Assembly: GCA_977862235.1 (NCBI GenBank)
Contig: OZ374565.1
Span: 2,480,001-2,544,000, forward strand
Source: Dudresnaya verticillata
Lineage: Eukaryota
Length of the DNA stretch: 64,000 nt
Reading direction: 5' to 3'
The notes beneath the pieces were generated by a model. The model was not told where the DNA came from. It searched no databases and saw only the letters and a list, made by a program, of their open reading frames with translations. The position numbers were made by a program, and so were the translations under genes. This document shows, piece by piece, positions 6,616-53,764 of the stretch; the first letter of the stretch is position 1; the number at the start of each line of letters is the position of its first letter.

Positions 6616-6652
6616 CTTAAAAGTAAGCGCAAAATAGGAAACGCGTGACCGT

Positions 6653-8025: not shown

Positions 8026-8114
8026 ACATTCGGCCATACTACGCAGACATGCTCCGTATCCCATCCCGAACTGCGAAGATAAGTCTCGTCAGGCTGGTTT
8101 AGTACTGAGGTGAG
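8026..8114 (+). rRNA. 5S rRNA: 5S rRNA gene, 5' fragment (+1..+89), interrupted; its 3' part lies at 38447-38477
   Basis: ACATTCGGCCATAC...ATCCCATCCCGAACTGCGAAGATAAG...TTAGTACTGAGGTGAG; conserved 5S motifs GGCCATAC, CCCATC-CGAAC, TAGTACT; 89+31 = 120 nt. Confidence 0.93.
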
Positions 8115-11100
8115 TTCAACTTTATAACAGGTGACCATATTCTAATATTTGTCGACGTACAATCTACTGTAGTATCACAACAAAGTTAAACCCCAACTCA
8201 AAACAACCTGCACATCTACACCTCCTGTTGGATCCCTTCCATCAGGCACTTGACGTTGTTCTGCACCAGTCGCGCCGCGTGCCTGTGGAACAGAGCCGCT
8301 CGCGAAACACCGCGAGTTACCATGGCCCGAGAAGCCACGGTATCCGCCAACTCTTGCATATACTTGTGCGCCTCCGGGTGCCAGCCACCTAGTGTGGTCA
8401 TCGGCACCGGCACAAGCCTTGCCCCCGGTCCGGCAGCCTGGATGAAGCCACGATAAGTCCGCACCTTGTCAGCGTGGGCGTTCTTCAGCGTCCCTTGCGG
8501 GTTTGTTATGCAGCTGAGAATGCGTTGTTCTGACGACAGTGGATGACTGATTGTGACGTCCAGGTAGTCCGTTCCTCCTTCTGTTCCAAGCGCCTTGATG
8601 TCCGGCCGATCCAAGTGAGCCCCCACAGGGCGGGGCTCCACAATCGGGGTGCGTGTCGCACGTTTCAGATCCGAAGCCAGCAGACGAACCTGAGAGTCGT
8701 GGCGCCACGACCGAGGAGATCCGCTGTTCCGCATGCCGTTCGGACAAATCAGCAGATGGTCGCCGTGAACATCCATCATCTTCTTGCACCCGGCCCGAGG
8801 ACACTCCGTGTCGGGTTCCAGCAGTGGAATCCGACAGTAGAATCGAAGCCATACGCGGTAGTCCCGATCCGCAATGTACGTCTTCATGCCTGGTGCCGGC
8901 TGGCACTTGAGCCAGTCCTTGGCGCCCGGCACGCCAAGGGAAGCTCGGAAAGCTTGCGTCCGCCTGTCCCCGAGCGGCAGCTCGGCTTGCACTTTCTTCA
9001 GAACCAACCGCGTCAAGTCCCGCTGGCGCGGGCACTCGTCGCTGTCGATCTTCTCCAGGTCCAGGGCATCCTCACTATGGCACTTGGCGCTCCAGTCTTC
9101 GTGCGCTTCTACTGCAAAAGGATCGTCAGAAAGAGCAGTGTTCACAGAAGCGGGTAAGATAGAACGCAGTAAGTTGCGGGTCAGTGAAAGGGACGCCAAA
9201 AACGCGCTCGAGTTCATGTCGCCAGCTCCCGAAATACCGATTCCGAAGCTGGGCTCTTTCGTGCGCAGGGGAAGCTGAAGTTCGCGGAAGGTGTCCCTCG
9301 GTAGGACTCCTCCCACGAGCTTGCGCATGCAAGCCTCAATCTTCTGGTCGAAGAGCTCGGCGCCCTTTGCCGTGGCGGATGATGGAACTACTCGCAGCAG
9401 GTAGTTCAGCCGGCAGACTCCGGCACAGTTGCGGAGTAGAGTGATGGCCACGTGTAGGTCTTCTAGTCCCGAAATTGCGTCCAGCAGGGGCTGGATGGAC
9501 TCGACATGGCCATTCACGCTCTCCTCCATGTAGTTCTGCGTTCCAATCGGAGCCTGAAGTACTGTAGTGCCTTCTCCGTAGCTCTGCCCAAGATCCGACG
9601 GGTAGGCAGCGCAGTCTTCTGGGTCGGGTGCAGTAGGCCACCAAACAGTACACTTGTCCATGCGCAGGTGGAAGCCATAGCCCTTAGCTTCCTCGGAGTC
9701 AAAGAAGGACAGAACCTTCCTGAGTACGGCGTGTTTCGCCACGATGACGCCGTCGTCCAGGTAGAACAGTGACAGCAGCAAGTTGTTCGCCCCCTCCGCT
9801 TGCTGATTGCGGCCCGAGCGCCGCAGGTCGGCGGTGAGTTCCTTCAACTGTTTGATCAGTGCCTGCAGCACCAAAGCAAACAGTAACGGCCCGAGCGGGT
9901 CACCTTGCTGTACACCAGTGACACTCCGCAGTAGAGTGTCACCCATCCACAGGTGCGGGCCCTCAGAGTCATAACAGTATCTGACCCACGGTAGTAGTTC
10001 AGGCATATGTCGGCGGACCTCCTTCATGAATGCTTTGCGGCTGACAAGGTTGAAGGCATTCTTCAAGTCCACTTGTAGCAACCCGTAGGACTTGTCATGG
10101 CCGTGAGACTTCTGCAGCTTCCGGACCGCGTGTACAATGGCTTCTGTGCCGCCCGAGGTTGCGACCCCGAGCTGAAGCGGTTCGAGGTATGCCTTGGCCT
10201 TGGGAGCGACTCTGGTCATGAGCATAGAGCTCACGAGTCGTCGGATTGTCTCTCCTACAGCAATGGGGCGGACACCGCCGGTGCGCTTCTTCAGAGCCGT
10301 GAGAGGAGCGCTGGCAATCCAAGGCGACAGCTCCGCAGGTCCTGCGCCGCTGGCCAGCACGTTGACCATTTTGGTGAGCCCGCCAAGCAGGCCCGTGTGC
10401 TCGTGAGTGGTCGGGACTGAGAGCAGTTCCTGCAGATGCGTCGGTGATAGTCCTGTTCCCCCCGAGGCCGAAGCCCGGGGGAACTTGGCCACTGCTTTTC
10501 GTACTTCGTCGGCTGTGAAAGGCACGAAGTCAGGCATGGTCGGCAGCGGTTCGGACTGGTCAAGCTCGTGGTCCGCGTCGGTTTGCGGTACGGACTGCGG
10601 GTGCTTGTCCTTCATGGACTGTATCACAGAGTCTGTGGCTGGGGCGATTCCATCAGAGTCTAGAGCTGCTGCTGCCTTACTGTAGGCGCCCTCCTTTGCA
10701 AGGCGAAGGGCTCGTGAGGCATTGATACGGCGTTGCTCTTCTGCGGAAGGCGCAGTCTGCTCACGGAATGTCGAGCCCTTCAAGGCCTCCTGCCATAGGG
10801 CGTCGTAATCCTTGAGTCCCCAGCGTCGGATTCGATCGCGGAAGGTGCCGATCGAGGACGCAGAGGTTGACGCGCTGGCCCTTGCACTCGCGGCGGGAGG
10901 ATTGGACAAGACGGCTGCTGGAAAAAGCAGGAATGCAGTGAGCTCTTTGGTGGCTTCCTGAGAGTTGGTTGCGTTCGTAAAAGCCCATACCGTCTTGGAC
11001 AGTGCGTCGCGCACCTCGGCGCGGACGCGAGACGGTATATGTGTGACCATAGGGATATGCGAGCGACAGATGTCTTCGACCGCCGGCAGAAGCTGCCCTC

Positions 11101-12754
11101 CTGGACCCCGCGCAACGGGTGGGGTTTGCGCAGTTGGTACCTCTCGAGTAGCAGGTACCGGTGCAGGAGGCGGCTCCTGGCTGTCCGGGATTCGTCGCGG
11201 GGCTGGCAGGATATCGTCCGCTGGCTCGCCGTCCTCGGGTTGCGTCTCCGTGACCGCGTCCAGAGCAGGAGACTGTGATGGCGCGGCTACAGTTTCTTCA
11301 CGGCTCGGTGTCGTCAATTGGTTGGACGGGACGTGGGAGAACGCCGGAGTGCGAGTAGCGGGACATGCGCTGCAATTCTTGTACCGCATACTGTACATGC
11401 CTTCACTGTTCATGCGGGAGCTACAGTGGGTGGGCATGTACTTGTTGTGAGTCACACAGTACCATACTCCATAGTCCAGGAGCTGCTGCTTGAGAGGCTC
11501 GATGTCGGTCCTCGTCGGTGGTCCTCGCCTGCCAGGAACATGCATCTTCCGCAGGTGCATGAGTAGCGCTTCTACAGTAGGCAGTGAGGACGACTGGCAG
11601 CCCAGAGGACAGCTGGTACTGTTTGTCGGGCGGTGTTTTGCCGAAGGCATAAAGCATGGAGAGAGCCATACCTTCGGCATGTCGGGGTGCTGCTGACCAA
11701 TCATGGTTACAGCGCTGGGTAAGGTACCTGTAAAGGTCCTCTACAGTAGGTTCCCACGGGGCACAGACCTCCTAACCGGGACGCAAGCCTGTCGTCCGTC
11801 GTCAGTCTGTTCGGGACACCTCCAGAGGGTGCTACAGGTGGCCTTGCTGCGAGATGAGGGCCTCTTCGCAGCGTAGGGCGCGAGATCGCGCACTTTGCGC
11901 ACGAGCTCGCGCAAAAGGGCGCGCGTGTTAGCGTTCGTGCGCGCAGAGTTATCGGACGTTCCCTTCCCTGCCGCAGCTGAGAAGACTCTCTTCACTGCGG
12001 TCCTGTAACGCGCGGTACTTCTCGTTTGCACAAGCTCTCAATGGGGTCGCAGAACCACCGTTTACCTGTGAGTGCCCACAGGATTTTTGGCCTCCCCCGA
12101 AGGTTCGCTGGCAGGACGTTCGCTCGATCTTAGAAGGGGTGGTTTCAAAACAGGATCCACCAGGCTTAAGCCACGTTACCCCAACTTCGACGTTGCTTGG
12201 CACGTTTCTGCGATGAGCTTGTGGGTCACGAGCCGCCTACCACTCAAGGTCGAGGGTCTTTGGCGATTCCCACACTTGTAGGTCTCTCGGCACTTCCCGA
12301 AGGAAGATTTTACAGGACAAGCCTGGCCTTTACCAATCTGTCAGTTGAAGGGTGTGAAACCCCTCTGTCGACAGTCCACGGCAGCCTAGACAGAGTCTAG
12401 GCTGTGCCGGGTACAAGCAAAACGCGTACAGGGCCAGGGAAAGAAAGATAAGTCAGTGGGGCCCGGGCAAATTTCAAGGTGAGGGATCACCTTAAAAGTA
12501 AGCGCAAAATAGGAAACGCGTGACCGTCGGCGACGACGGCGGCGGCGACGGCGGCGACGACGACGGCGTCGCGGCGCAGATCGGCGGCGCGGAAAGAGAC
12601 AAAAGTAGACCGCGCTCGCCCGCCCGCGAAGGTGAAGGGCTGAAAAACCCCGCACCGACGCGCCGTCGCGCGCTCGAACAGGCGGCACCGCCGCCGAAAA
12701 GATCGGTGCAGAACTTGCTGAGAAATCTCCGAAACAAAAAATTCGGCAGATCGC
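8115..12754 (-). mobile_element. Full-length retrotransposon, copy 2
   Basis: 3' end joined directly to 5S +89; intact ORF. Confidence 0.95.
8216..11704 (-). CDS. 1162-aa RT/RLE polyprotein
   Basis: ORF track; same motifs as copy 1. Confidence 0.95.
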   Translation of the reverse strand: MIGQQHPDMPKVWLSPCFMPSAKHRPTNSTSCPLGCQSSSLPTVEALLMHLRKMHVPGRRGPPTRTDIEPLKQQLLDYGVWYCVTHNKYMPTHCSSRMNSEGMYSMRYKNCSACPATRTPAFSHVPSNQLTTPSREETVAAPSQSPALDAVTETQPEDGEPADDILPAPRRIPDSQEPPPAPVPATREVPTAQTPPVARGPGGQLLPAVEDICRSHIPMVTHIPSRVRAEVRDALSKTVWAFTNATNSQEATKELTAFLLFPAAVLSNPPAASARASASTSASSIGTFRDRIRRWGLKDYDALWQEALKGSTFREQTAPSAEEQRRINASRALRLAKEGAYSKAAAALDSDGIAPATDSVIQSMKDKHPQSVPQTDADHELDQSEPLPTMPDFVPFTADEVRKAVAKFPRASASGGTGLSPTHLQELLSVPTTHEHTGLLGGLTKMVNVLASGAGPAELSPWIASAPLTALKKRTGGVRPIAVGETIRRLVSSMLMTRVAPKAKAYLEPLQLGVATSGGTEAIVHAVRKLQKSHGHDKSYGLLQVDLKNAFNLVSRKAFMKEVRRHMPELLPWVRYCYDSEGPHLWMGDTLLRSVTGVQQGDPLGPLLFALVLQALIKQLKELTADLRRSGRNQQAEGANNLLLSLFYLDDGVIVAKHAVLRKVLSFFDSEEAKGYGFHLRMDKCTVWWPTAPDPEDCAAYPSDLGQSYGEGTTVLQAPIGTQNYMEESVNGHVESIQPLLDAISGLEDLHVAITLLRNCAGVCRLNYLLRVVPSSATAKGAELFDQKIEACMRKLVGGVLPRDTFRELQLPLRTKEPSFGIGISGAGDMNSSAFLASLSLTRNLLRSILPASVNTALSDDPFAVEAHEDWSAKCHSEDALDLEKIDSDECPRQRDLTRLVLKKVQAELPLGDRRTQAFRASLGVPGAKDWLKCQPAPGMKTYIADRDYRVWLRFYCRIPLLEPDTECPRAGCKKMMDVHGDHLLICPNGMRNSGSPRSWRHDSQVRLLASDLKRATRTPIVEPRPVGAHLDRPDIKALGTEGGTDYLDVTISHPLSSEQRILSCITNPQGTLKNAHADKVRTYRGFIQAAGPGARLVPVPMTTLGGWHPEAHKYMQELADTVASRAMVTRGVSRAALFHRHAARLVQNNVKCLMEGIQQEV

Positions 12755-12798
12755 GAGGGGTTCTCCGGGTACTGAGGTGAGGACTGAGGTCAGGTGAG

Positions 12799-15700
12799 TT
12801 CAACTTTATAACAGGTGACCATATTCTAATATTTGTCGACGTACAATCTACTGTAGTATCACAACAAAGTTAAACCCCAACTCAAAACAACCTGCACATC
12901 TACACCTCCTGTTGGATCCCTTCCATCAGGCACTTGACGTTGTTCTGCACCAGTCGCGCCGCGTGCCTGTGGAACAGAGCCGCTCGCGAAACACCGCGAG
13001 TTACCATGGCCCGAGAAGCCACGGTATCCGCCAACTCTTGCATATACTTGTGCGCCTCCGGGTGCCAGCCACCTAGTGTGGTCATCGGCACCGGCACAAG
13101 CCTTGCCCCCGGTCCGGCAGCCTGGATGAAGCCACGGTAAGTCCGCACCTTGTCAGCGTGGGCGTTCTTCAGCGTCCCTTGCGGGTTTGTTATGCAGCTG
13201 AGAATGCGTTGTTCTGACGACAGTGGATGACTGATTGTGACGTCCAGGTAGTCCGTTCCTCCTTCTGTTCCAAGCGCCTTGATGTCCGGCCGATCCAAGT
13301 GAGCCCCCACAGGGCGGGGCTCCACAATCGGGGTGCGTGTCGCACGTTTCAGATCCGAAGCCAGCAGACGAACCTGAGAGTCGTGGCGCCACGACCGAGG
13401 AGATCCGCTGTTCCGCATGCCGTTCGGACAAATCAGCAGATGGTCGCCGTGAACATCCATCATCTTCTTGCACCCGGCCCGAGGACACTCCGTGTCGGGT
13501 TCCAGCAGTGGAATCCGACAGTAGAATCGAAGCCATACGCGGTAGTCCCGATCCGCAATGTACGTCTTCATGCCTGGTGCCGGCTGGCACTTGAGCCAGT
13601 CCTTGGCGCCCGGCACGCCAAGGGAAGCTCGGAAAGCTTGCGTCCGCCTGTCCCCGAGCGGCAGCTCGGCTTGCACTTTCTTCAGAACCAACCGCGTCAA
13701 GTCCCGCTGGCGCGGGCACTCGTCGCTGTCGATCTTCTTCAGGTCCAGGGCATCCTCACTATGGCACTTGGCGCTCCAGTCTTCGTGCGCTTCTACTGCA
13801 AAAGGATCGTCAGAAAGAGCAGTGTTCACAGAAGCGGGTAAGATAGAACGCAGTAAGTTGCGGGTCAGTGAAAGGGACGCCAAAAACGCGCTCGAGTTCA
13901 TGTCGCCAGCTCCCGAAATACCGATTCCGAAGCTGGGCTCTTTCGTGCGCAGGGGAAGCTGAAGTTCGCGGAAGGTGTCCCTCGGTAGGACTCCTCCCAC
14001 GAGCTTGCGCATGCAAGCCTCAATCTTCTGGTCGAAGAGCTCGGCGCCCTTTGCCGTGGCGGATGATGGAACTACTCGCAGCAGGTAGTTCAGCCGGCAG
14101 ACTCCGGCACAGTTGCGGAGTAGAGTGATGGCCACGTGTAGGTCTTCTAGTCCCGAAATTGCGTCCAGCAGGGGCTGGATGGACTCGACATGGCCATTCA
14201 CGCTCTCCTCCATGTAGTTCTGCGTTCCAATCGGAGCCTGAAGTACTGTAGTGCCTTCTCCGTAGCTCTGCCCAAGATCCGACGGGTAGGCAGCGCAGTC
14301 TTCTGGGTCGGGTGCAGTAGGCCACCAAACAGTACACTTGTCCATGCGCAGGTGGAAGCCATAGCCCTTAGCTTCCTCGGAGTCAAAGAAGGACAGAACC
14401 TTCCTGAGTACGGCGTGTTTCGCCACGATGACGCCGTCGTCCAGGTAGAACAGTGACAGCAGCAAGTTGTTCGCCCCCTCCGCTTGCTGATTGCGGCCCG
14501 AGCGCCGCAGGTCGGCGGTGAGTTCCTTCAACTGTTTGATCAGTGCCTGCAGCACCAAAGCAAACAGTAACGGCCCGAGCGGGTCACCTTGCTGTACACC
14601 AGTGACACTCCGCAGTAGAGTGTCACCCATCCACAGGTGCGGGCCCTCAGAGTCATAACAGTATCTGACCCACGGTAGTAGTTCAGGCATATGTCGGCGG
14701 ACCTCCTTCATGAATGCTTTGCGGCTGACAAGGTTGAAGGCATTCTTCAAGTCCACTTGTAGCAACCCGTAGGACTTGTCATGGCCGTGAGACTTCTGCA
14801 GCTTCCGGACCGCGTGTACAATGGCTTCTGTGCCGCCCGAGGTTGCGACCCCGAGCTGAAGCGGTTCGAGGTATGCCTTGGCCTTGGGAGCGACTCTGGT
14901 CATGAGCATAGAGCTCACGAGTCGTCGGATTGTCTCTCCTACAGCAATGGGGCGGACACCGCCGGTGCGCTTCTTCAGAGCCGTGAGAGGAGCGCTGGCA
15001 ATCCAAGGCGACAGCTCCGCAGGTCCTGCGCCGCTGGCCAGCACGTTGACCATTTTGGTGAGCCCGCCAAGCAGGCCCGTGTGCTCGTGAGTGGTCGGGA
15101 CTGAGAGCAGTTCCTGCAGATGCGTCGGTGATAGTCCTGTTCCCCCCGAGGCCGAAGCCCGGGGGAACTTGGCCACTGCTTTTCGTACTTCGTCGGCTGT
15201 GAAAGGCACGAAGTCAGGCATGGTCGGCAGCGGTTCGGACTGGTCAAGCTCGTGGTCCGCGTCGGTTTGCGGTACGGACTGCGGGTGCTTGTCCTTCATG
15301 GACTGTATCACAGAGTCTGTGGCTGGGGCGATTCCATCAGAGTCTAGAGCTGCTGCTGCCTTACTGTAGGCGCCCTCCTTTGCAAGGCGAAGGGCTCGTG
15401 AGGCATTGATACGGCGTTGCTCTTCTGCGGAAGGCGCAGTCTGCTCACGGAATGTCGAGCCCTTCAAGGCCTCCTGCCATAGGGCGTCGTAATCCTTGAG
15501 TCCCCAGCGTCGGATTCGATCGCGGAAGGTGCCGATCGAGGACGCAGAGGTTGACGCGCTGGCCCTTGCACTCGCGGCGGGAGGATTGGACAAGACGGCT
15601 GCTGGAAAAAGCAGGAATGCAGTGAGCTCTTTGGTGGCTTCCTGAGAGTTGGTTGCGTTCGTAAAAGCCCATACCGTCTTGGACAGTGCGTCGCGCACCT

Positions 15701-17438
15701 CGGCGCGGACGCGAGACGGTATATGTGTGACCATAGGGATATGCGAGCGACAGATGTCTTCGACCGCCGGCAGAAGCTGCCCTCCTGGACCCCGCGCAAC
15801 GGGTGGGGTTTGCGCAGTTGGTACCTCTCGAGTAGCAGGTACCGGTGCAGGAGGCGGCTCCTGGCTGTCCGGGATTCGTCGCGGGGCTGGCAGGATATCG
15901 TCCGCTGGCTCGCCGTCCTCGGGTTGCGTCTCCGTGACCGCGTCCAGAGCAGGAGACTGTGATGGCGCGGCTACAGTTTCTTCACGGCTCGGTGTCGTCA
16001 ATTGGTTGGACGGGACGTGGGAGAACGCCGGAGTGCGAGTAGCGGGACATGCGCTGCAATTCTTGTACCGCATACTGTACATGCCTTCACTGTTCATGCG
16101 GGAGCTACAGTGGGTGGGCATGTACTTGTTGTGAGTCACACAGTACCATACTCCATAGTCCAGGAGCTGCTGCTTGAGAGGCTCGATGTCGGTCCTCGTC
16201 GGTGGTCCTCGCCTGCCAGGAACATGCATCTTCCGCAGGTGCATGAGTAGCGCTTCTACAGTAGGCAGTGAGGACGACTGGCAGCCCAGAGGACAGCTGG
16301 TACTGTTTGTCGGGCGGTGTTTTGCCGAAGGCATAAAGCATGGAGAGAGCCATACCTTCGGCATGTCGGGGTGCTGCTGACCAATCATGGTTACAGCGCT
16401 GGGTAAGGTACCTGTAAAGGTCCTCTACAGTAGGTTCCCACGGGGCACAGACCTCCTAACCGGGACGCAAGCCTGTCGTCCGTCGTCAGTCTGTTCGGGA
16501 CACCTCCAGAGGGTGCTACAGGTGGCCTTGCTGCGAGATGAGGGCCTCTTCGCAGCGTAGGGCGCGAGATCGCGCACTTTGCGCACGAGCTCGCGCAAAA
16601 GGGCGCGCGTGTTAGCGTTCGTGCGCGCAGAGTTATCGGACGTTCCCTTCCCTGCCGCAGCTGAGAAGACTCTCTTCACTGCGGTCCTGTAACGCGCGGT
16701 ACTTCTCGTTTGCACAAGCTCTCAATGGGGTCGCAGAACCACCGTTTACCTGTGAGTGCCCACAGGATTTTTGGCCTCCCCCGAAGGTTCGCTGGCAGGA
16801 CGTTCGCTCGATCTTAGAAGGGGTGGTTTCAAAACAGGATCCACCAGGCTTAAGCCACGTTACCCCAACTTCGACGTTGCTTGGCACGTTTCTGCGATGA
16901 GCTTGTGGGTCACGAGCCGCCTACCACTCAAGGTCGAGGGTCTTTGGCGATTCCCACACTTGTAGGTCTCTCGGCACTTCCCGAAGGAAGATTTTACAGG
17001 ACAAGCCTGGCCTTTACCAATCTGTCAGTTGAAGGGTGTGAAACCCCTCTGTCGACAGTCCACGGCAGCCTAGACAGAGTCTAGGCTGTGCCGGGTACAA
17101 GCAAAACGCGTACAGGGCCAGGGAAAGAAAGATAAGTCAGTGGGGCCCGGGCAAATTTCAAGGTGAGGGATCACCTTAAAAGTAAGCGCAAAATAGGAAA
17201 CGCGTGACCGTCGGCGACGACGGCGGCGGCGACGGCGGCGACGACGACGGCGTCGCGGCGCAGATCGGCGGCGCGGAAAGAGACAAAAGTAGACCGCGCT
17301 CGCCCGCCCGCGAAGGTGAAGGGCTGAAAAACCCCGCACCGACGCGCCGTCGCGCGCTCGAACAGGCGGCACCGCCGCCGAAAAGATCGGTGCAGAACTT
17401 GCTGAGAAATCTCCGAAACAAAAAATTCGGCAGATCGC
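12799..17438 (-). mobile_element. Full-length retrotransposon, copy 3
   Basis: Tandem copy bounded by target-derived junctions. Confidence 0.95.
12900..16388 (-). CDS. 1162-aa RT/RLE polyprotein (LDLKK variant)
   Basis: ORF track. Confidence 0.95.
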   Translation of the reverse strand: MIGQQHPDMPKVWLSPCFMPSAKHRPTNSTSCPLGCQSSSLPTVEALLMHLRKMHVPGRRGPPTRTDIEPLKQQLLDYGVWYCVTHNKYMPTHCSSRMNSEGMYSMRYKNCSACPATRTPAFSHVPSNQLTTPSREETVAAPSQSPALDAVTETQPEDGEPADDILPAPRRIPDSQEPPPAPVPATREVPTAQTPPVARGPGGQLLPAVEDICRSHIPMVTHIPSRVRAEVRDALSKTVWAFTNATNSQEATKELTAFLLFPAAVLSNPPAASARASASTSASSIGTFRDRIRRWGLKDYDALWQEALKGSTFREQTAPSAEEQRRINASRALRLAKEGAYSKAAAALDSDGIAPATDSVIQSMKDKHPQSVPQTDADHELDQSEPLPTMPDFVPFTADEVRKAVAKFPRASASGGTGLSPTHLQELLSVPTTHEHTGLLGGLTKMVNVLASGAGPAELSPWIASAPLTALKKRTGGVRPIAVGETIRRLVSSMLMTRVAPKAKAYLEPLQLGVATSGGTEAIVHAVRKLQKSHGHDKSYGLLQVDLKNAFNLVSRKAFMKEVRRHMPELLPWVRYCYDSEGPHLWMGDTLLRSVTGVQQGDPLGPLLFALVLQALIKQLKELTADLRRSGRNQQAEGANNLLLSLFYLDDGVIVAKHAVLRKVLSFFDSEEAKGYGFHLRMDKCTVWWPTAPDPEDCAAYPSDLGQSYGEGTTVLQAPIGTQNYMEESVNGHVESIQPLLDAISGLEDLHVAITLLRNCAGVCRLNYLLRVVPSSATAKGAELFDQKIEACMRKLVGGVLPRDTFRELQLPLRTKEPSFGIGISGAGDMNSSAFLASLSLTRNLLRSILPASVNTALSDDPFAVEAHEDWSAKCHSEDALDLKKIDSDECPRQRDLTRLVLKKVQAELPLGDRRTQAFRASLGVPGAKDWLKCQPAPGMKTYIADRDYRVWLRFYCRIPLLEPDTECPRAGCKKMMDVHGDHLLICPNGMRNSGSPRSWRHDSQVRLLASDLKRATRTPIVEPRPVGAHLDRPDIKALGTEGGTDYLDVTISHPLSSEQRILSCITNPQGTLKNAHADKVRTYRGFIQAAGPGARLVPVPMTTLGGWHPEAHKYMQELADTVASRAMVTRGVSRAALFHRHAARLVQNNVKCLMEGIQQEV

Positions 17439-17482
17439 GAGGGGTTCTCCGGGTACTGAGGTGAGGACTGAGGTCAGGTGAG

Positions 17483-22122: not shown

Positions 22123-22138
22123 TGAGTACTGAGGTGAG

Positions 22139-26777: not shown

Positions 26778-26797
26778 GTACTGAGTACTGAGGTGAG

Positions 26798-29700: not shown

Positions 29701-31437
29701 GGCGCGGACGCGAGACGGTATATGTGTGACCATAGGGATATGCGAGCGACAGATGTCTTCGACCGCCGGCAGAAGCTGCCCTCCTGGACCCCGCGCAACG
29801 GGTGGGGTTTGCGCAGTTGGTACCTCTCGAGTAGCAGGTACCGGTGCAGGAGGCGGCTCCTGGCTGTCCGGGATTCGTCGCGGGGCTGGCAGGATATCGT
29901 CCGCTGGCTCGCCGTCCTCGGGTTGCGTCTCCGTGACCGCGTCCAGAGCAGGAGACTGTGATGGCGCGGCTACAGTTTCTTCACGGCTCGGTGTCGTCAA
30001 TTGGTTGGACGGGACGTGGGAGAACGCCGGAGTGCGAGTAGCGGGACATGCGCTGCAATTCTTGTACCGCATACTGTACATGCCTTCACTGTTCATGCGG
30101 GAGCTACAGTGGGTGGGCATGTACTTGTTGTGAGTCACACAGTACCATACTCCATAGTCCAGGAGCTGCTGCTTGAGAGGCTCGATGTCGGTCCTCGTCG
30201 GTGGTCCTCGCCTGCCAGGAACATGCATCTTCCGCAGGTGCATGAGTAGCGCTTCTACAGTAGGCAGTGAGGACGACTGGCAGCCCAGAGGACAGCTGGT
30301 ACTGTTTGTCGGGCGGTGTTTTGCCGAAGGCATAAAGCATGGAGAGAGCCATACCTTCGGCATGTCGGGGTGCTGCTGACCAATCATGGTTACAGCGCTG
30401 GGTAAGGTACCTGTAAAGGTCCTCTACAGTAGGTTCCCACGGGGCACAGACCTCCTAACCGGGACGCAAGCCTGTCGTCCGTCGTCAGTCTGTTCGGGAC
30501 ACCTCCAGAGGGTGCTACAGGTGGCCTTGCTGCGAGATGAGGGCCTCTTCGCAGCGTAGGGCGCGAGATCGCGCACTTTGCGCACGAGCTCGCGCAAAAG
30601 GGCGCGCGTGTTAGCGTTCGTGCGCGCAGAGTTATCGGACGTTCCCTTCCCTGCCGCAGCTGAGAAGACTCTCTTCACTGCGGTCCTGTAACGCGCGGTA
30701 CTTCTCGTTTGCACAAGCTCTCAATGGGGTCGCAGAACCACCGTTTACCTGTGAGTGCCCACAGGATTTTTGGCCTCCCCCGAAGGTTCGCTGGCAGGAC
30801 GTTCGCTCGATCTTAGAAGGGGTGGTTTCAAAACAGGATCCACCAGGCTTAAGCCACGTTACCCCAACTTCGACGTTGCTTGGCACGTTTCTGCGATGAG
30901 CTTGTGGGTCACGAGCCGCCTACCACTCAAGGTCGAGGGTCTTTGGCGATTCCCACACTTGTAGGTCTCTCGGCACTTCCCGAAGGAAGATTTTACAGGA
31001 CAAGCCTGGCCTTTACCAATCTGTCAGTTGAAGGGTGTGAAACCCCTCTGTCGACAGTCCACGGCAGCCTAGACAGAGTCTAGGCTGTGCCGGGTACAAG
31101 CAAAACGCGTACAGGGCCAGGGAAAGAAAGATAAGTCAGTGGGGCCCGGGCAAATTTCAAGGTGAGGGATCACCTTAAAAGTAAGCGCAAAATAGGAAAC
31201 GCGTGACCGTCGGCGACGACGGCGGCGGCGACGGCGGCGACGACGACGGCGTCGCGGCGCAGATCGGCGGCGCGGAAAGAGACAAAAGTAGACCGCGCTC
31301 GCCCGCCCGCGAAGGTGAAGGGCTGAAAAACCCCGCACCGACGCGCCGTCGCGCGCTCGAACAGGCGGCACCGCCGCCGAAAAGATCGGTGCAGAACTTG
31401 CTGAGAAATCTCCGAAACAAAAAATTCGGCAGATCGC
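26798..31437 (-). mobile_element. Full-length retrotransposon, copy 6
   Basis: Tandem copy flanked by AGTACTGAGGTGAG on both sides. Confidence 0.95.
26899..30387 (-). CDS. 1162-aa RT/RLE polyprotein
   Basis: ORF track. Confidence 0.95.
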   Translation of the reverse strand: MIGQQHPDMPKVWLSPCFMPSAKHRPTNSTSCPLGCQSSSLPTVEALLMHLRKMHVPGRRGPPTRTDIEPLKQQLLDYGVWYCVTHNKYMPTHCSSRMNSEGMYSMRYKNCSACPATRTPAFSHVPSNQLTTPSREETVAAPSQSPALDAVTETQPEDGEPADDILPAPRRIPDSQEPPPAPVPATREVPTAQTPPVARGPGGQLLPAVEDICRSHIPMVTHIPSRVRAEVRDALSKTVWAFTNATNSQEATKELTAFLLFPAAVLSNPPAASARASASTSASSIGTFRDRIRRWGLKDYDALWQEALKGSTFREQTAPSAEEQRRINASRALRLAKEGAYSKAAAALDSDGIAPATDSVIQSMKDKHPQSVPQTDADHELDQSEPLPTMPDFVPFTADEVRKAVAKFPRASASGGTGLSPTHLQELLSVPTTHEHTGLLGGLTKMVNVLASGAGPAELSPWIASAPLTALKKRTGGVRPIAVGETIRRLVSSMLMTRVAPKAKAYLEPLQLGVATSGGTEAIVHAVRKLQKSHGHDKSYGLLQVDLKNAFNLVSRKAFMKEVRRHMPELLPWVRYCYDSEGPHLWMGDTLLRSVTGVQQGDPLGPLLFALVLQALIKQLKELTADLRRSGRNQQAEGANNLLLSLFYLDDGVIVAKHAVLRKVLSFFDSEEAKGYGFHLRMDKCTVWWPTAPDPEDCAAYPSDLGQSYGEGTTVLQAPIGTQNYMEESVNGHVESIQPLLDAISGLEDLHVAITLLRNCAGVCRLNYLLRVVPSSATAKGAELFDQKIEACMRKLVGGVLPRDTFRELQLPLRTKEPSFGIGISGAGDMNSSAFLASLSLTRNLLRSILPASVNTALSDDPFAVEAHEDWSAKCHSEDALDLEKIDSDECPRQRDLTRLVLKKVQAELPLGDRRTQAFRASLGVPGAKDWLKCQPAPGMKTYIADRDYRVWLRFYCRIPLLEPDTECPRAGCKKMMDVHGDHLLICPNGMRNSGSPRSWRHDSQVRLLASDLKRATRTPIVEPRPVGAHLDRPDIKALGTEGGTDYLDVTISHPLSSEQRILSCITNPQGTLKNAHADKVRTYRGFIQAAGPGARLVPVPMTTLGGWHPEAHKYMQELADTVASRAMVTRGVSRAALFHRHAARLVQNNVKCLMEGIQQEV

Positions 31438-31462
31438 GAGGGGTTCTCAGTACTGAGGTGAG

Positions 31463-34400
31463 TTCAACTTTATAACAGGTGACCATATTCTAATATTTGT
31501 CGACGTACAATCTACTGTAGTATCACAACAAAGTTAAACCCCAACTCAAAACAACCTGCACATCTACACCTCCTGTTGGATCCCTTCCATCAGGCACTTG
31601 ACGTTGTTCTGCACCAGTCGCGCCGCGTGCCTGTGGAACAGAGCCGCTCGCGAAACACCGCGAGTTACCATGGCCCGAGAAGCCACGGTATCCGCCAACT
31701 CTTGCATATACTTGTGCGCCTCCGGGTGCCAGCCACCTAGTGTGGTCATCGGCACCGGCACAAGCCTTGCCCCCGGTCCGGCAGCCTGGATGAAGCCACG
31801 GTAAGTCCGCACCTTGTCAGCGTGGGCGTTCTTCAGCGTCCCTTGCGGGTTTGTTATGCAGCTGAGAATGCGTTGTTCTGACGACAGTGGATGACTGATT
31901 GTGACGTCCAGGTAGTCCGTTCCTCCTTCTGTTCCAAGCGCCTTGATGTCCGGCCGATCCAAGTGAGCCCCCACAGGGCGGGGCTCCACAATCGGGGTGC
32001 GTGTCGCACGTTTCAGATCCGAAGCCAGCAGACGAACCTGAGAGTCGTGGCGCCACGACCGAGGAGATCCGCTGTTCCGCATGCCGTTCGGACAAATCAG
32101 CAGATGGTCGCCGTGAACATCCATCATCTTCTTGCACCCGGCCCGAGGACACTCCGTGTCGGGTTCCAGCAGTGGAATCCGACAGTAGAATCGAAGCCAT
32201 ACGCGGTAGTCCCGATCCGCAATGTACGTCTTCATGCCTGGTGCCGGCTGGCACTTGAGCCAGTCCTTGGCGCCCGGCACGCCAAGGGAAGCTCGGAAAG
32301 CTTGCGTCCGCCTGTCCCCGAGCGGCAGCTCGGCTTGCACTTTCTTCAGTACCAACCGCGTCAAGTCCCGCTGGCGCGGGCACTCGTCGCTGTCGATCTT
32401 CTCCAGGTCCAGGGCATCCTCACTATGGCACTTGGCGCTCCAGTCTTCGTGCGCTTCTACTGCAAAAGGATCGTCAGAAAGAGCAGTGTTCACAGAAGCG
32501 GGTAAGATAGAACGCAGTAAGTTGCGGGTCAGTGAAAGGGACGCCAAAAACGCGCTCGAGTTCATGTCGCCAGCTCCCGAAATACCGATTCCGAAGCTGG
32601 GCTCTTTCGTGCGCAGGGGAAGCTGAAGTTCGCGGAAGGTGTCCCTCGGTAGGACTCCTCCCACGAGCTTGCGCATGCAAGCCTCAATCTTCTGGTCGAA
32701 GAGCTCGGCGCCCTTTGCCGTGGCGGATGATGGAACTACTCGCAGCAGGTAGTTCAGCCGGCAGACTCCGGCACAGTTGCGGAGTAGAGTGATGGCCACG
32801 TGTAGGTCTTCTAGTCCCGAAATTGCGTCCAGCAGGGGCTGGATGGACTCGACATGGCCATTCACGCTCTCCTCCATGTAGTTCTGCGTTCCAATCGGAG
32901 CCTGAAGTACTGTAGTGCCTTCTCCGTAGCTCTGCCCAAGATCCGACGGGTAGGCAGCGCAGTCTTCTGGGTCGGGTGCAGTAGGCCACCAAACAGTACA
33001 CTTGTCCATTCGCAGGTGGAAGCCATAGCCCTTAGCTTCCTCGGAGTCAAAGAAGGACAGAACCTTCCTGAGTACGGCGTGTTTCGCCACGATGACGCCG
33101 TCGTCCAGGTAGAACAGTGACAGCAGCAAGTTGTTCGCCCCCTCCGCTTGCTGATTGCGGCCCGAGCGCCGCAGGTCGGCGGTGAGTTCCTTCAACTGTT
33201 TGATCAGTGCCTGCAGCACCAAAGCAAACAGTAACGGCCCGAGCGGGTCACCTTGCTGTACACCAGTGACACTCCGCAGTAGAGTGTCACCCATCCACAG
33301 GTGCGGGCCCTCAGAGTCATAACAGTATCTGACCCACGGTAGTAGTTCAGGCATATGTCGGCGGACCTCCTTCATGAATGCTTTGCGGCTGACAAGGTTG
33401 AAGGCATTCTTCAAGTCCACTTGTAGCAACCCGTAGGACTTGTCATGGCCGTGAGACTTCTGCAGCTTCCGGACCGCGTGTACAATGGCTTCTGTGCCGC
33501 CCGAGGTTGCGACCCCGAGCTGAAGCGGTTCGAGGTATGCCTTGGCCTTGGGAGCGACTCTGGTCATGAGCATAGAGCTCACGAGTCGTCGGATTGTCTC
33601 TCCTACAGCAATGGGGCGGACACCGCCGGTGCGCTTCTTCAGAGCCGTGAGAGGAGCGCTGGCAATCCAAGGCGACAGCTCCGCAGGTCCTGCGCCGCTG
33701 GCCAGCACGTTGACCATTTTGGTGAGCCCGCCAAGCAGGCCCGTGTGCTCGTGAGTGGTCGGGACTGAGAGCAGTTCCTGCAGATGGGTCGGTGATAGTC
33801 CTGTTCCCCCCGAGGCCGAAGCCCGGGGGAACTTGGCCACTGCTTTTCGTACTTCGTCGGCTGTGAAAGGCACGAAGTCAGGCATGGTCGGCAGCGGTTC
33901 GGACTGGTCAAGCTCGTGGTCCGCGTCGGTTTGCGGTACGGACTGCGGGTGCTTGTCCTTCATGGACTGTATCACAGAGTCTGTGGCTGGGGCGATTCCA
34001 TCAGAGTCTAGAGCTGCTGCTGCCTTACTGTAGGCGCCCTCCTTTGCAAGGCGAAGGGCTCGTGAGGCATTGATACGGCGTTGCTCTTCTGCGGAAGGCG
34101 CAGTCTGCTCACGGAATGTCGAGCCCTTCAAGGCCTCCTGCCATAGGGCGTCGTAATCCTTGAGTCCCCAGCGTCGGATTCGATCGCGGAAGGTGCCGAT
34201 CGAGGACGCAGAGGTTGACGCGCTGGCCCTTGCACTCGCGGCGGGAGGATTGGACAAGACGGCTGCTGGAAAAAGCAGGAATGCAGTGAGCTCTTTGGTG
34301 GCTTCCTGAGAGTTGGTTGCGTTCGTAAAAGCCCATACCGTCTTGGACAGTGCGTCGCGCACCTCGGCGCGGACGCGAGACGGTATATGTGTGACCATAG

Positions 34401-36102
34401 GGATATGCGAGCGACAGATGTCTTCGACCGCCGGCAGAAGCTGCCCTCCTGGACCCCGCGCAACGGGTGGGGTTTGCGCAGTTGGTACCTCTCGAGTAGC
34501 AGGTACCGGTGCAGGAGGCGGCTCCTGGCTGTCCGGGATTCGTCGCGGGGCTGGCAGGATATCGTCCGCTGGCTCGCCGTCCTCGGGTTGCGTCTCCGTG
34601 ACCGCGTCCAGAGCAGGAGACTGTGATGGCGCGGCTACAGTTTCTTCACGGCTCGGTGTCGTCAATTGGTTGGACGGGACGTGGGAGAACGCCGGAGTGC
34701 GAGTAGCGGGACATGCGCTGCAATTCTTGTACCGCATACTGTACATGCCTTCACTGTTCATGCGGGAGCTACAGTGGGTGGGCATGTACTTGTTGTGAGT
34801 CACATAGTACCATACTCCATAGTCCAGGAGCTGCTGCTTGAGAGGCTCGATGTCGGTCCTCGTCGGTGGTCCTCGCCTGCCAGGAACATGCATCTTCCGC
34901 AGGTGCATGAGTAGCGCTTCTACAGTAGGCAGTGAGGACGACTGGCAGCCCAGAGGACAGCTGGTACTGTTTGTCGGGCGGTGTTTTGCCGAAGGCATAA
35001 AGCATGGAGAGAGCCATACCTTCGGCATGTCGGGGTGCTGCTGACCAATCATGGTTACAGCGCTGGGTAAGGTACCTGTAAAGGTCCTCTACAGTAGGTT
35101 CCCACGGGGCACAGGCCTCCTAACCGGGACGCAAGCCTGTCGTCCGTCGTCAGTCTGTTCGGGACACCTCCAGAGGGTGCTACAGGTGGCCTTGCTGCGA
35201 GATGAGGGCCTCTTCGCAGCGTAGGGCGCGAGATCGCGCACTTTGCGCACGAGCTCGCGCAAAAGGGCGCGCGTGTTAGCGTTCGTGCGCGCAGAGTTAT
35301 CGGACGTTCCCTTCCCTGCCGCAGCTGAGAAGACTCTCTTCACTGCGGTCCTGTAACGCGCGGTACTTCTCGTTTGCACAAGCTCTCAATGGGGTCGCAG
35401 AACCACCGTTTACCTGTGAGTGCCCACAGGATTTTTGGCCTCCCCCGAAGGTTCGCTGGCAGGACGTTCGCTCGATCTTAGAAGGGGTGGTTTCAAAACA
35501 GGATCCACCAGGCTTAAGCCACGTTACCCCAACTTCGACGTTGCTTGGCACGTTTCTGCGATGAGCTTGTGGGTCACGAGCCGCCTACCACTCAAGGTCG
35601 AGGGTCTTTGGCGATTCCCACACTTGTAGGTCTCTCGGCACTTCCCGAAGGAAGATTTTACAGGACAAGCCTGGCCTTTACCAATCTGTCAGTTGAAGGG
35701 TGTGAAACCCCTCTGTCGACAGTCCACGGCAGCCTAGACAGAGTCTAGGCTGTGCCGGGTACAAGCAAAACGCGTACAGGGCCAGGGAAAGAAAGATAAG
35801 TCAGTGGGGCCCGGGCAAATTTCAAGGTGAGGGATCACCTTAAAAGTAAGCGCAAAATAGGAAACGCGTGACCGTCGGCGACGACGGCGGCGGCGACGGC
35901 GGCGACGACGACGGCGTCGCGGCGCAGATCGGCGGCGCGGAAAGAGACAAAAGTAGACCGCGCTCGCCCGCCCGCGAAGGTGAAGGGCTGAAAAACCCCG
36001 CACCGACGCGCCGTCGCGCGCTCGAACAGGCGGCACCGCCGCCGAAAAGATCGGTGCAGAACTTGTTGAGATATCCGCGAAACAAAAATTTCGGCAGATC
36101 GC
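31463..36102 (-). mobile_element. Full-length retrotransposon, copy 7
   Basis: Tandem copy; clean 5' junction CAGATCG-CTGAGGTGAG. Confidence 0.95.
31564..35052 (-). CDS. 1162-aa RT/RLE polyprotein (C83Y variant)
   Basis: ORF track (WYYVTH instead of WYCVTH). Confidence 0.95.
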   Translation of the reverse strand: MIGQQHPDMPKVWLSPCFMPSAKHRPTNSTSCPLGCQSSSLPTVEALLMHLRKMHVPGRRGPPTRTDIEPLKQQLLDYGVWYYVTHNKYMPTHCSSRMNSEGMYSMRYKNCSACPATRTPAFSHVPSNQLTTPSREETVAAPSQSPALDAVTETQPEDGEPADDILPAPRRIPDSQEPPPAPVPATREVPTAQTPPVARGPGGQLLPAVEDICRSHIPMVTHIPSRVRAEVRDALSKTVWAFTNATNSQEATKELTAFLLFPAAVLSNPPAASARASASTSASSIGTFRDRIRRWGLKDYDALWQEALKGSTFREQTAPSAEEQRRINASRALRLAKEGAYSKAAAALDSDGIAPATDSVIQSMKDKHPQSVPQTDADHELDQSEPLPTMPDFVPFTADEVRKAVAKFPRASASGGTGLSPTHLQELLSVPTTHEHTGLLGGLTKMVNVLASGAGPAELSPWIASAPLTALKKRTGGVRPIAVGETIRRLVSSMLMTRVAPKAKAYLEPLQLGVATSGGTEAIVHAVRKLQKSHGHDKSYGLLQVDLKNAFNLVSRKAFMKEVRRHMPELLPWVRYCYDSEGPHLWMGDTLLRSVTGVQQGDPLGPLLFALVLQALIKQLKELTADLRRSGRNQQAEGANNLLLSLFYLDDGVIVAKHAVLRKVLSFFDSEEAKGYGFHLRMDKCTVWWPTAPDPEDCAAYPSDLGQSYGEGTTVLQAPIGTQNYMEESVNGHVESIQPLLDAISGLEDLHVAITLLRNCAGVCRLNYLLRVVPSSATAKGAELFDQKIEACMRKLVGGVLPRDTFRELQLPLRTKEPSFGIGISGAGDMNSSAFLASLSLTRNLLRSILPASVNTALSDDPFAVEAHEDWSAKCHSEDALDLEKIDSDECPRQRDLTRLVLKKVQAELPLGDRRTQAFRASLGVPGAKDWLKCQPAPGMKTYIADRDYRVWLRFYCRIPLLEPDTECPRAGCKKMMDVHGDHLLICPNGMRNSGSPRSWRHDSQVRLLASDLKRATRTPIVEPRPVGAHLDRPDIKALGTEGGTDYLDVTISHPLSSEQRILSCITNPQGTLKNAHADKVRTYRGFIQAAGPGARLVPVPMTTLGGWHPEAHKYMQELADTVASRAMVTRGVSRAALFHRHAARLVQNNVKCLMEGIQQEV

Positions 36103-36111
36103 TGAGGTGAG

Positions 36112-38437
36112 TTCAACTTTATAACAGGTGACCATATTCTAATATTTGTCGACGTACAATCTACTGTAGTATCACAACAAAGTTAAACCCCAACTCAAAA
36201 CAACCTGCACATCTACACCTCCTGTTGGATCCCTTCCATCAGGCACTTGACGTTGTTCTGCACCAGTCGCGCCGCGTGCCTGTGGAACAGAGCCGCTCGC
36301 GAAACACCGCGAGTTACCATGGCCCGAGAAGCCACGGTATCCGCCAACTCTTGCATATACTTGTGCGCCTCCGGGTGCCAGCCACCTAGTGTGGTCATCG
36401 GCACCGGCACAAGCCTTGCCCCCGGTCCGGCAGCCTGGATGAAGCCACGGTAAGTCCGCACCTTGTCAGCGTGGGCGTTCTTCAGCGTCCCTTGCGGGTT
36501 TGTTATGCAGCTGAGAATGCGTTGTTCTGACGACAGTGGATGACTGATTGTGACGTCCAGGTAGTCCGTTCCTCCTTCTGTTCCAAGCGCCTTGATGTCC
36601 GGCCGATCCAAGTGAGCCCCCACAGGGCGGGGCTCCACAATCGGGGTGCGTGTCGCACGTTTCAGATCCGAAGCCAGCAGACGAACCTGAGAGTCGTGGC
36701 GCCACGACCGAGGAGATCCGCTGTTCCGCATGCCGTTCGGACAAATCAGCAGATGGTCGCCGTGAACATCCATCATCTTCTTGCACCCGGCCCGAGGACA
36801 CTCCGTGTCGGGTTCCAGCAGTGGAATCCGACAGTAGAATCGAAGCCATACGCGGTAGTCCCGATCCGCAATGTACGTCTTCATGCCTGGTGCCGGCTGG
36901 CACTTGAGCCAGTCCTTGGCGCCCGGCACGCCAAGGGAAGCTCGGAAAGCTTGCGTCCGCCTGTCCCCGAGCGGCAGCTCGGCTTGCACTTTCTTCAGAA
37001 CCAACCGCGTCAAGTCCCGCTGGCGCGGGCACTCGTCGCTGTCGATCTTCTCCAGGTCCAGGGCATCCTCACTATGGCACTTGGCGCTCCAGTCTTCGTG
37101 CGCTTCTACTGCAAAAGGATCGTCAGAAAGAGCAGTGTTCACAGAAGCGGGTAAGATAGAACGCAGTAAGTTGCGGGTCAGTGAAAGGGACGCCAAAAAC
37201 GCGCTCGAGTTCATGTCGCCAGCTCCCGAAATACCGATTCCGAAGCTGGGCTCTTTCGTGCGCAGGGGAAGCTGAAGTTCGCGGAAGGTGTCCCTCGGTA
37301 GGACTCCTCCCACGAGCTTGCGCATGCAAGCCTCAATCTTCTGGTCGAAGAGCTCGGCGCCCTTTGCCGTGGCGGATGATGGAACTACTCGCAGCAGGTA
37401 GTTCAGCCGGCAGACTCCGGCACAGTTGCGGAGTAGAGTGATGGCCACGTGTAGGTCTTCTAGTCCCGAAATTGCGTCCAGCAGGGGCTGGATGGACTCG
37501 ACATGGCCATTCACGCTCTCCTCCATGTAGTTCTGCGTTCCAATCGGAGCCTGAAGTACTGTAGTGCCTTCTCCGTAGCTCTGCCCAAGATCCGACGGGT
37601 AGGCAGCGCAGTCTTCTGGGTCGGGTGCAGTAGGCCACCAAACAGTACACTTGTCCATTCGCAGGTGGAAGCCATAGCCCTTAGCTTCCTCGGAGTCAAA
37701 GAAGGACAGAACCTTCCTGAGTACGGCGTGTTTCGCCACGATGACGCCGTCGTCCAGGTAGAACAGTGACAGCAGCAAGTTGTTCGCCCCCTCCGCTTGC
37801 TGATTGCGGCCCGGGCGCCGCAGGTCGGCGGTGAGTTCCTTCAACTGTTTGATCAGTGCCTGCAGCACCAAAGCAAACAGTAACGGCCCGAGCGGGTCAC
37901 CTTGCTGTACACCAGTGACACTCCGCAGTAGAGTGTCACCCATCCACAGGTGCGGGCCCTCAGAGTCATAACAGTATCTGACCCACGGTAGTAGTTCAGG
38001 CATATGTCGGCGGACCTCCTTCATGAATGCTTTGCGGCTGACAAGGTTGAAGGCATTCTTCAAGTCCACTTGTAGCAACCCGTAGGACTTGTCATGGCCG
38101 TGAGACTTCTGCAGCTTCCGGACCGCGTGTACAATGGCTTCTGTGCCGCCCGAGGTTGCGACCCCGAGCTGAAGCGGTTCGAGGTATGCCTTGGCCTTGG
38201 GATCGACTCTGGTCATGAGCATAGAGCTCACGAGTCGTCGGATTGTCTCTCCTACAGCAATGGGGCGGACACCGCCGGTGCGCTTCTTCAGAGCCGTGAG
38301 AGGAGCGCTGGCAATCCAAGGCGACAGCTCCGCAGGTCCTGCGCCGCTGGCCAGCACGTTGACCATTTTGGTGAGCCCGCCAAGCAGGCCCGTGTGCTCG
38401 TGAGTGGTCGGGACTGAGAGCAGTTCCTGCAGATCGC
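36112..38437 (-). mobile_element. 5'-truncated retrotransposon, copy 8 (~2.3 kb)
   Basis: Element sequence stops at internal CCTGCAGAT, then CG, CTGAGGTGAG and the 5S 3' half. Confidence 0.93.
36213..38434 (-). pseudogene. N-terminally truncated polyprotein ORF (from LQELL; RT core and RLE); frame stays open into antisense 5S/spacer to 38552
   Basis: The 779-aa ORF call is a chimera of spacer/5S antisense sequence and element. Confidence 0.85.
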
Positions 38438-38446
38438 TGAGGTGAG

Positions 38447-38477
38447 GGATCACTCTGGAATCGCCAGTGCCGAATGT
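38447..38477 (+). rRNA. 5S rRNA: 5S rRNA gene, 3' fragment (+90..+120)
   Basis: Identical to 6906-6936. Confidence 0.93.
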
Positions 38478-44293: not shown

Positions 44294-44312
44294 GAGGGGG
44301 TACTGAGGTGAG

Positions 44313-53745: not shown

Positions 53746-53764
53746 GAGGGGGTACTGAGGTGAG

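Follow-up and report, generated by a model that had tools for sequence, protein, structure and literature searches.

A 64,000-nucleotide stretch of the Dudresnaya verticillata genome (GenBank assembly GCA_977862235.1, contig OZ374565.1, positions 2,480,001 to 2,544,000 of the forward strand; hereafter, the window) is part of a eukaryotic 5S ribosomal DNA (rDNA) array, with a G+C content of about 0.52-0.60. It carries 16 copies or partial copies (named E0-E15) of an R2-like long interspersed nuclear element (LINE), which lie antisense in 5S genes between nucleotides +89 and +90 and are stacked head to tail. The make-up of the junctions indicates that the stacks probably arose by repeated insertion at rebuilt targets, and that parts of them were then copied by unequal recombination.

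Rfam searches of the window returned four 5S matches, at 8026, 39567, 49019 and 62912. All four are genuine 5S up to +89 only (...CTGAGGTGAG; also given as ...GTACTGAGGTGAG) and continue into the foreign TTCAACTTTATAACAGG, and all four 5S 5' parts are occupied at one phosphodiester bond, +89/+90. The 31-nt 5S 3' part (GGATCACTCTGG...GCCGAATGT, with a T-run after it) was found at 6906, 38447 and 61792. In helix I, 8026-8034 is exactly complementary to 38469-38477, and 89 and 31 nt add up to 120 nt, so that 8026-8114 and 38447-38477 belong to a single gene whose two parts are separated by 30,332 bp. Seven copies lie head to tail between 8114 and 38447 (one of 2335 bp, the other six of 4649-4684 bp), and their 3' ends start at 8115, 12799, 17483, 22139, 26798, 31463 and 36112; this is where a preliminary description of this DNA had placed them. 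The four further copies that it had reported between 49107 and 61792 were recovered at 49108-61791 (4657, 4657, 1035 and 2335 bp). All five 5S gene units seen in the window are knocked out. The features are listed below, with 5' junction types named jA-jJ.

1-2239, minus strand: E0, 5' part of a copy, clipped by the window edge; junction jA ends at 2239.
2240-6905, minus strand: E1, full-length, junction jI; last of its stack; 16-nt direct repeat CTCAGTCTGAGGTGAG at its flanks.
6906-6936, plus strand: 5S 3' part (+90..+120) of the gene holding E0 and E1; a T-run follows, then a 1.09-kb spacer.
8026-8114, plus strand: 5S 5' part (+1..+89) of the gene holding the seven-copy stack.
8115-12798, minus strand: E2, full-length, 4684 bp, junction jB; open reading frame (ORF) 8216-11740 of 1174 aa (P0001).
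12799-17482, minus strand: E3, full-length, junction jB; 2 substitutions relative to E2; local duplicate.
17483-22138, minus strand: E4, full-length, junction jC.
22139-26797, minus strand: E5, full-length, junction jD; 17-nt flanking direct repeat, 14 nt of it 5S.
26798-31462, minus strand: E6, full-length, junction jE.
31463-36111, minus strand: E7, full-length, junction jF (…GGCAGATCG+CTGAGGTGAG).
36112-38446, minus strand: E8t, 5'-truncated, 2335 bp, junction jJ at an internal GCAGAT; 18-nt direct repeat GCAGATCGCTGAGGTGAG, which includes the E7 5' end.
38447-38477, plus strand: 5S 3' part (+90..+120) of the gene starting at 8026; a T-run follows.
38498-47949 (copy 1) and 47950-57401 (copy 2): 9452-bp tandem segmental duplication.
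Content of duplication copy 1: spacer; 5S 5' part, 39567-39655; E9, 39656-44312; E10t, 44313-47949.
49019-49107, plus strand: 5S 5' part of the gene holding E11-E14t.
49108-53764, minus strand: E11, full-length, junction jG.
53765-58421, minus strand: E12, full-length, junction jC.
58422-59456, minus strand: E13t, 5'-truncated, 1035 bp, junction jH; an internal CAGA is joined to ...TCGTCAGTACTGAGGTGAG.
59457-61791, minus strand: E14t, duplicate of E8t, junction jJ, 5 substitutions.
61792-61822, plus strand: 5S 3' part of the gene starting at 49019.
62912-63000, plus strand: 5S 5' part next to E15.
63001-64000, minus strand: E15, 3' end of a copy, clipped by the window edge.

The two ends of the element behaved differently at the target. 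All 15 element 3' ends in the window were joined exactly after ...GGTGAG, at one bond. Each 5' junction consisted of the element end ...TTCGGCAGATCG(C), 0-16 other letters, and then 7, 10, 13 or 14 nt of 5S ending at +89, the 5S letters being drawn from +76..+89. The preliminary description had assigned the duplicated piece to 'box C', a label that we take to come from the Xenopus 5S control region. Each of the 11 inter-element junctions ended with 7-14 nt of 5S up to +89. There were ten distinct 5' junction types. The 5' end was shortened in three different ways, and two of the shortened forms had microhomology to the flank. Because ten junction types cannot come from copying, they show at least ten integrations in the gene units seen. 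The positions earlier taken as different 5' junctions (12755, 22123, 26778, 31438, 36102 and 38437) all fall on 5' junctions, and the idea of several independent integrations is borne out by the ten junction types and by at least three sequence haplotypes among the copies.

Junctions jB, jE and jG (at 12755, 17439, 31438, 44292 and 53744) have 6-14 letters of extra sequence in common (GAGGGGTTCTCCGG on the plus strand; CCGGAGAACCCCTCG in the sense direction), which had no other occurrence in the window. Letters common to these junctions suggest that the RNA template sometimes started at least 15 nt further upstream. Junction jB (12755-12798 and 17439-17482) is compound, with three partial target copies in a row (GTACTGAGGTGAG, GACTGAGGTC and AGGTGAG), and may have been left by attempts to insert at the rebuilt site that aborted or were of near-zero length.

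For 13 copies, we compared the two flanks both between themselves and against 5S. Re-cutting at the boundary of 5S (+1..+89) and an element could leave a duplicate with 5S letters only; re-cutting at the boundary of a resident 5' end plus its duplicate and 5S +90 could leave a duplicate that includes letters of the resident junction. The flanks of E1 and E8t, both of which adjoin a 5S 3' part, share 16 and 18 nt, respectively, versus 10 nt matching 5S in each, and those of E5 share 17 nt versus 14 nt, so that 6 (E1), 8 (E8t) and 3 (E5) non-5S letters are common with the left junction. Seven of the 13 flank pairs were equal and uninformative, and E3 is a plain duplicate of E2. Since the flanking repeats of E1 and E8t include non-5S letters of the neighbour's 5' junction, these two copies appear to have entered beside the 5S 3' part, at a site where the downstream 5S is complete and no more than 10 nt of the upstream 5S is left. 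The preliminary description had made three proposals: occupied genes can be targeted again, the enzyme recognises nothing but sequence upstream of the nick, and the newest copy lies beside the 5S 5' half. The first of these is supported; the recognition rule and the polarity are most likely the reverse of what was proposed.

The truncated copies provided a second line of evidence. At the internal point concerned, the full element reads ...CAGTTCCTGCAGAT/GCGTCGG, E8t reads ...CAGTTCCTGCAGAT/CGCTGAGGTGAG/GGATCAC, and the junction to the left of E8t reads ...TTCGGCAGATCGCTGAGGTGAG. E8t is thus cut at an internal ...CCTGCAGAT and continues with CGCTGAGGTGAG, which reproduces the left neighbour's junction GCAGATCGCTGAGGTGAG. 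This sequence suggests that the end of the complementary DNA (cDNA) annealed via GCAGAT to an overhang that held the E7 5' end and the 10-nt duplicate. In E13t, the only other independent truncated insertion, an internal ...GTCAGA is followed by TCG and then by the duplicate (CAGA/TCG). The resident 5'-terminal heptamer CAGATCG is thereby present at the 5' junction of both independent 5'-truncated insertions, and its chance occurrence there, given random truncation and random filler, is about 7.6e-4 per event. An origin of E8t and E13t by internal deletion of full-length copies was rejected, as both deletions would have to end in the element's last 7 nt.

The orientation of the element and the general mechanism of such elements would place a nick on the 5S sense strand after +89, with the 3' OH priming the cDNA. 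In the proposed course of events, the element's endonuclease would nick the sense strand there, the 3' OH at the nick would prime cDNA from the element 3' end, and the other strand would be cut 10-18 bp upstream. The cDNA end would then be joined to the overhang, often via microhomology, and a duplicate of ...CTGAGGTGAG would be left directly before 5S +90. The site rebuilt in this way could be cut again, and the stack would extend towards the 5S 3' half.

Parts of the stacks have clearly been copied by unequal recombination. Identical junctions occur in pairs (jB, jC, jG and jJ, each twice), and the three complete 5S spacers (1118 bp) are identical. With 2 substitutions and the common junction jB, E3 is a local duplicate of E2. 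In the 9452-bp duplication, 38498-46783 is identical to 47950-56235 (8.3 kb, 0 differences), and the remainder has 3 differences. The 47949/47950 join shows a TTCC microhomology between element and spacer, and the 5S 3' part, the terminator and about 20 bp of spacer were removed there; this join accounts for the unit 38498-47949 having no 5S 3' part. E10t reflects the duplication breakpoint rather than a truncated insertion. A further tract, 19895-23154, is identical to 56178-59437 (3.26 kb) and spans junction jC. The sequence between E8t and the next 5S 5' part, both included, is repeated at 59447-63020. The two blocks differ at 5 positions (36205, 36624, 37659, 37814 and 38203), every one of them in the element; the neighbouring 1.2 kb of 5S and spacer shows no difference. 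The placement of these differences suggests gene conversion among element copies. As read from these comparisons, the overall picture is one of repeated insertion and concerted evolution of the array. Divergence showed no gradient with stack position, and two variants of the 5' untranslated region (UTR) alternate along stack 1, so that the copies could not be ordered by age.

Several observations weigh against stack growth beside the 5S 3' part. The flanks of E4 (7 versus 14 nt) and E12 (13 versus 14 nt), 2 of the 13 pairs, point in the opposite direction. E13t and E14t are not now beside the junction recorded by their own 5' junctions, so recombination is required. The six non-5S letters shared by the E1 flanks (CTCAGT) are the reverse complement of 5S ACTGAG, and a double fold-back origin is possible. 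At internal junctions, moreover, a copy that entered an inter-element junction would look the same as one that entered beside the 5S 3' part. The disagreeing E4 flanks could be explained by the identical 3.26-kb tract across jC. Overall, E1, E5, E8t and E13t speak for entry of new copies at the resident's 5' duplicate, and E4 and E12 speak against it or are blurred by recombination.

These same exceptions are what would be expected if the enzyme read only the 5S sequence upstream of the nick and re-cut the boundary between 5S (+1..+89) and the element 3' end, with the newest copy beside the 5S 5' half. Such a rule predicts both E4 (14 nt right, 7 left) and E12 (14 versus 13), and in each stack 5S +1..+89 is indeed intact and runs straight into an element 3' end. 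We nevertheless consider it unlikely, as it leaves unexplained both the 6, 3 and 8 non-5S letters shared at the flanks of E1, E5 and E8t and the presence of CAGATCG at both truncated insertions. It is also contrary to the R1 precedent, in which growth of tandem copies towards the target 3' half was proposed (Stage and Eickbush 2009, PMC2718515; here and below, statements on cited papers refer to the available parts of their texts).

Concatemers formed in one event, with the reverse transcriptase (RT) jumping from an RNA 5' end to the 3' end of another RNA that reads into flanking 5S, are quite unlikely as the source of the stacks. In vitro, the R2 enzyme is known to jump end to end between templates. 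The order found at the junctions (5' end, extra letters, 5S to +89, next 3' end) is as jumps would give, and E12-jC-E13t equals E4-jC-E5 over 3.26 kb, which could stem from a dimeric template; template jumping by the R2 enzyme is also referred to in PMC2718515. Jumps cannot, however, yield the terminal junctions of E1 and E8t, where a repeat with the neighbour's 5' end stands directly before 5S +90, and the copies within one stack are of different haplotypes.

We regard it as very unlikely that the stacks are an assembly artefact, with near-identical 4.65-kb copies put together in the wrong number or order. In favour of such an error are the likeness of at least 98.7% among the copies and an 8.3-kb block that recurs with no difference at all. 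The public read run X1 (12% of sampled words; 16 short contigs on 44001-64000, with no joint and no junction bridged) gave no supporting reads and is itself neutral on the array. Yet every junction type is unique, and so are many copy-specific substitutions; assemblers do not invent features of this kind. Tandem R1 copies separated by target duplicates are, in addition, well documented (PMC2718515). Miscounting could touch the E2/E3 pair and the 9452-bp duplication, but it would leave the existence of stacks unaffected. Finally, one dimer might have expanded solely through unequal crossing-over, in the manner of the large D. melanogaster R1 array and with occupied genes not re-targeted. This would fit the identical junction pairs, multi-kb blocks and spacers but is highly improbable, because crossing-over copies junctions and cannot create them, the 5' junctions here are of ten kinds (with duplicates of 7, 10, 13 and 14 nt, and extra letters), and the D. 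melanogaster array has one uniform 33-nt spacer (McGurk and Barbash, bioRxiv 10.1101/158386). The junctions are too varied for unequal crossing-over to be the sole cause, and it stands as a contributing process.

The element is on the minus strand, antisense to 5S, and its full copies measure 4649-4684 bp. The 5' region spans about 1.03 kb, has no long frame and holds a (CGGCGACGACGG)n run; it is followed by a single 1174-aa ORF (8216-11740 in E2, P0001) and by a 101-nt 3' UTR with the end ...GTTGAA and no poly(A) or A-run. The 3' UTR folded no better than its shuffles (z = -0.63). No ribozyme or other RNA family was detected in 31400-39700 at E <= 1, a search that divergent ribozymes can escape. 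The (CGGCGACGACGG)n run is at 12528-12589 and at the same place in each copy; the E9/E11 haplotype (44067-44128 and 53519-53580) has a different repeat pattern.

RVT_1, at residues 484-700 (E 1.2e-16), was the sole Pfam domain of the ORF; neither an AP-endonuclease domain nor a Ulp1-type protease domain was found in it with Pfam. The AlphaFold model of the protein, with 54 relatives in the alignment, had a pLDDT of 86.5 and a pTM of 0.81. When this model was compared with the PDB using Foldseek, ranks 1-7 were all R2 proteins (915-1044 columns, E 1e-22 to 1e-19), with L1 ORF2p next. In structural alignments with VIA-align, model residues 331-1173 matched residues 308-1107 of the R2Bm chain (Z 22.4, 710 aligned), and the alignment to zebra-finch R2 (Z 23.1) reached model residue 1174. 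As these alignments reach the C-terminal ends of the proteins, the fold match extends through the C-terminal nuclease. L1 ORF2p had a Z of 26.4, slightly above the R2 proteins, which is attributable to the polymerase core. In the alignment of relatives, YLDDG and GVQQGDPLGPLLF are conserved in the RT, and at least 80% of the 54 rows retain C-x4-C...GDH-x3-C, RH, E, PD, D and K; we take the catalytic ones among these endonuclease residues to be those assigned in the R2 literature. Near the ORF N-terminus there is a zinc-finger-like C-x3-C-x13-H-x4-H stretch. As predicted from the sequence and the model, the domain layout is that of a LINE with a restriction-like endonuclease, a class to which R2, NeSL, R4, CRE and HERO belong.

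In keeping with this assignment, the element has a LINE-type RT, no terminal repeats, a precise 3' junction and variable or truncated 5' ends. The R2 clade proper is marked by the 28S R2 site in sense orientation, and the target here is 5S +89/+90, antisense. The ORF was intact in all 11 copies long enough for it (ten full-length copies and E10t), with 0-9 aa differences from E2. The copies differ by 0-60 substitutions, at most 1.3%, with 113 variable columns. Intact ORFs and low divergence mark a young family that looks active.

Stacking as such is already known, of the R1 type, and what is new here is the 5S target and the type of element. Tandem R1 copies were reported in seven Drosophila species, some with two to three R1 per inserted unit, truncated R1 5' junctions had microhomologies of 1-5 nt (PMC2718515), and a double insertion followed by unequal exchange was described as the route for R1 (bioRxiv 10.1101/158386). 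R1 and the present element are both site-specific non-LTR elements that are arranged head to tail at a canonical site with a target duplicate between copies (14 bp in the ancestral type of R1, 7-14 nt here). New R1 copies are proposed to enter at the resident's 5' duplicate, with later expansion by unequal exchange, and the present copies probably did likewise; 5' microhomologies and extra letters occur in both. R1 differs in its AP-type endonuclease, two ORFs and sense orientation in 28S, compared with one ORF, a restriction-like endonuclease and antisense orientation in 5S here. The deepest stack in the window has 7 copies, whereas R1 averages two to three per inserted unit, besides one large amplified array.

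The likeness to R2 (structures 8gh6, 9dou, 9nl2 and 9nl3) lies in the single ORF with an N-terminal zinc finger, RT, and C-terminal CCHC and endonuclease, and in the absence of poly(A), the precise 3' junction and the variable 5' junction. Identity in the structural alignments is, however, 16-17%, the target is 5S instead of 28S, and no counterpart of the 5' HDV-like self-cleaving ribozyme that marks the R2 clade was found in the region searched here. Unlike R2, the element cannot be co-transcribed with its 5S target because of its antisense orientation. The duplicates are of 10-18 nt, whereas R2 junctions mostly have small deletions or none (PMC2718515).

Restriction-like-endonuclease LINEs of the NeSL/Utopia group also insert in small multicopy RNA genes (U2 snRNA, spliced leader and others), with precise 3' and variable 5' boundaries and duplicates of 0-20 bp; among them, Utopia-1_NVit is described as 'occasionally inserted in tandem in U2 genes' (PMC4640811). 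The target here is 5S, and no 5S target is mentioned in the available part of that paper. A Ulp1-type protease domain (PF02902) was present in P0006 (47% identity, 1552 aa) and P0007 (45%, 2035 aa), two close relatives among the 120 listed. Such a protease is present in NeSL and Utopia-1_TSP (PMC4640811), and the domain in P0006 and P0007 hints at a kinship with the NeSL/Utopia group.

Mutsu, a Tx1/L1-type non-LTR element of zebrafish, likewise inserts specifically inside the 5S genes of tandem arrays, but it is about 5.5 kb long, has two ORFs and a poly(A) stretch, goes by L1 names in Repbase and sits about 20 nt from the 5S 5' end (PMC5340908); the present element has one ORF, no poly(A) and its target at +89/+90. 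A 2024 review states, in its available part, that no insertion of a transposable element within a 5S gene has been reported to its authors' knowledge, yet its own table lists Mutsu (PMC10946416). We found no LINE with a restriction-like endonuclease in 5S in the literature searched, with Repbase and subscription journals outside the search. Tentatively, the element may represent the first lineage of restriction-like-endonuclease LINEs specialised on 5S, with an enzyme that would need at most 10 bp of primed-side sequence together with the 5S 3' part, a landing site rebuilt by every insertion, and open-ended polar stacks that extend in the direction of the gene's 3' end. If this is true, whole stretches of the 5S array become nurseries of intact, active copies.

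The nearest public proteins to the ORF are metagenome or assembly products, with at most 58% identity. Relatives were encoded in 469 of the 598 matched metagenome stretches, and the best 80 of these were used for locus comparisons. With blastn, nothing similar to the 5S parts, either UTR or the spacer was found in these 80 loci, and in the 20 of them that were scanned (the closest or longest) there was no Rfam gene at gathering scores. The contigs of the closest relatives (40-58% identity) end at the element and hold no flanks. Five loci on long contigs (L007, L009, L039, L011 and L010) hold a 3.3-kb family with 31% protein identity from an A+T-rich organism. Its copies are 97-99% alike, some with A-rich tails, and the flanks differ at every copy, so this family, a branch of the protein family to which the ORF belongs, is not site-specific. 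No tandem structure was found at L002 (39% identity).

R2-type site-specific LINEs are being developed for safe-harbour gene insertion, and the short, highly conserved 5S +89/+90 target would widen the set. The flanking repeats offer a read-out, from sequence only, of which half of the target is needed, with at most 10 bp of 5S on the primed side. That all units are occupied and the parasite ORFs intact raises the question of where the functional 5S genes are located.

In the Rfam search, the split genes (8026-8143, 39567-39684, 49019-49136 and 62912-63029) pass for full-length 5S, with model positions 1-120 covered and scores of 52-54 bits, because the alignment takes the element's first 29 nt for the 5S 3' end. 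Such dead 5S genes would be tallied as intact by automatic annotation. The 5S spacer had no RNA family match; each spacer holds three tandem copies of a 22-bp repeat (AGTGTGGTGGATGGAATGGATC), at 7196-7261, 38737-38802, 48189-48254 and 62082-62147.

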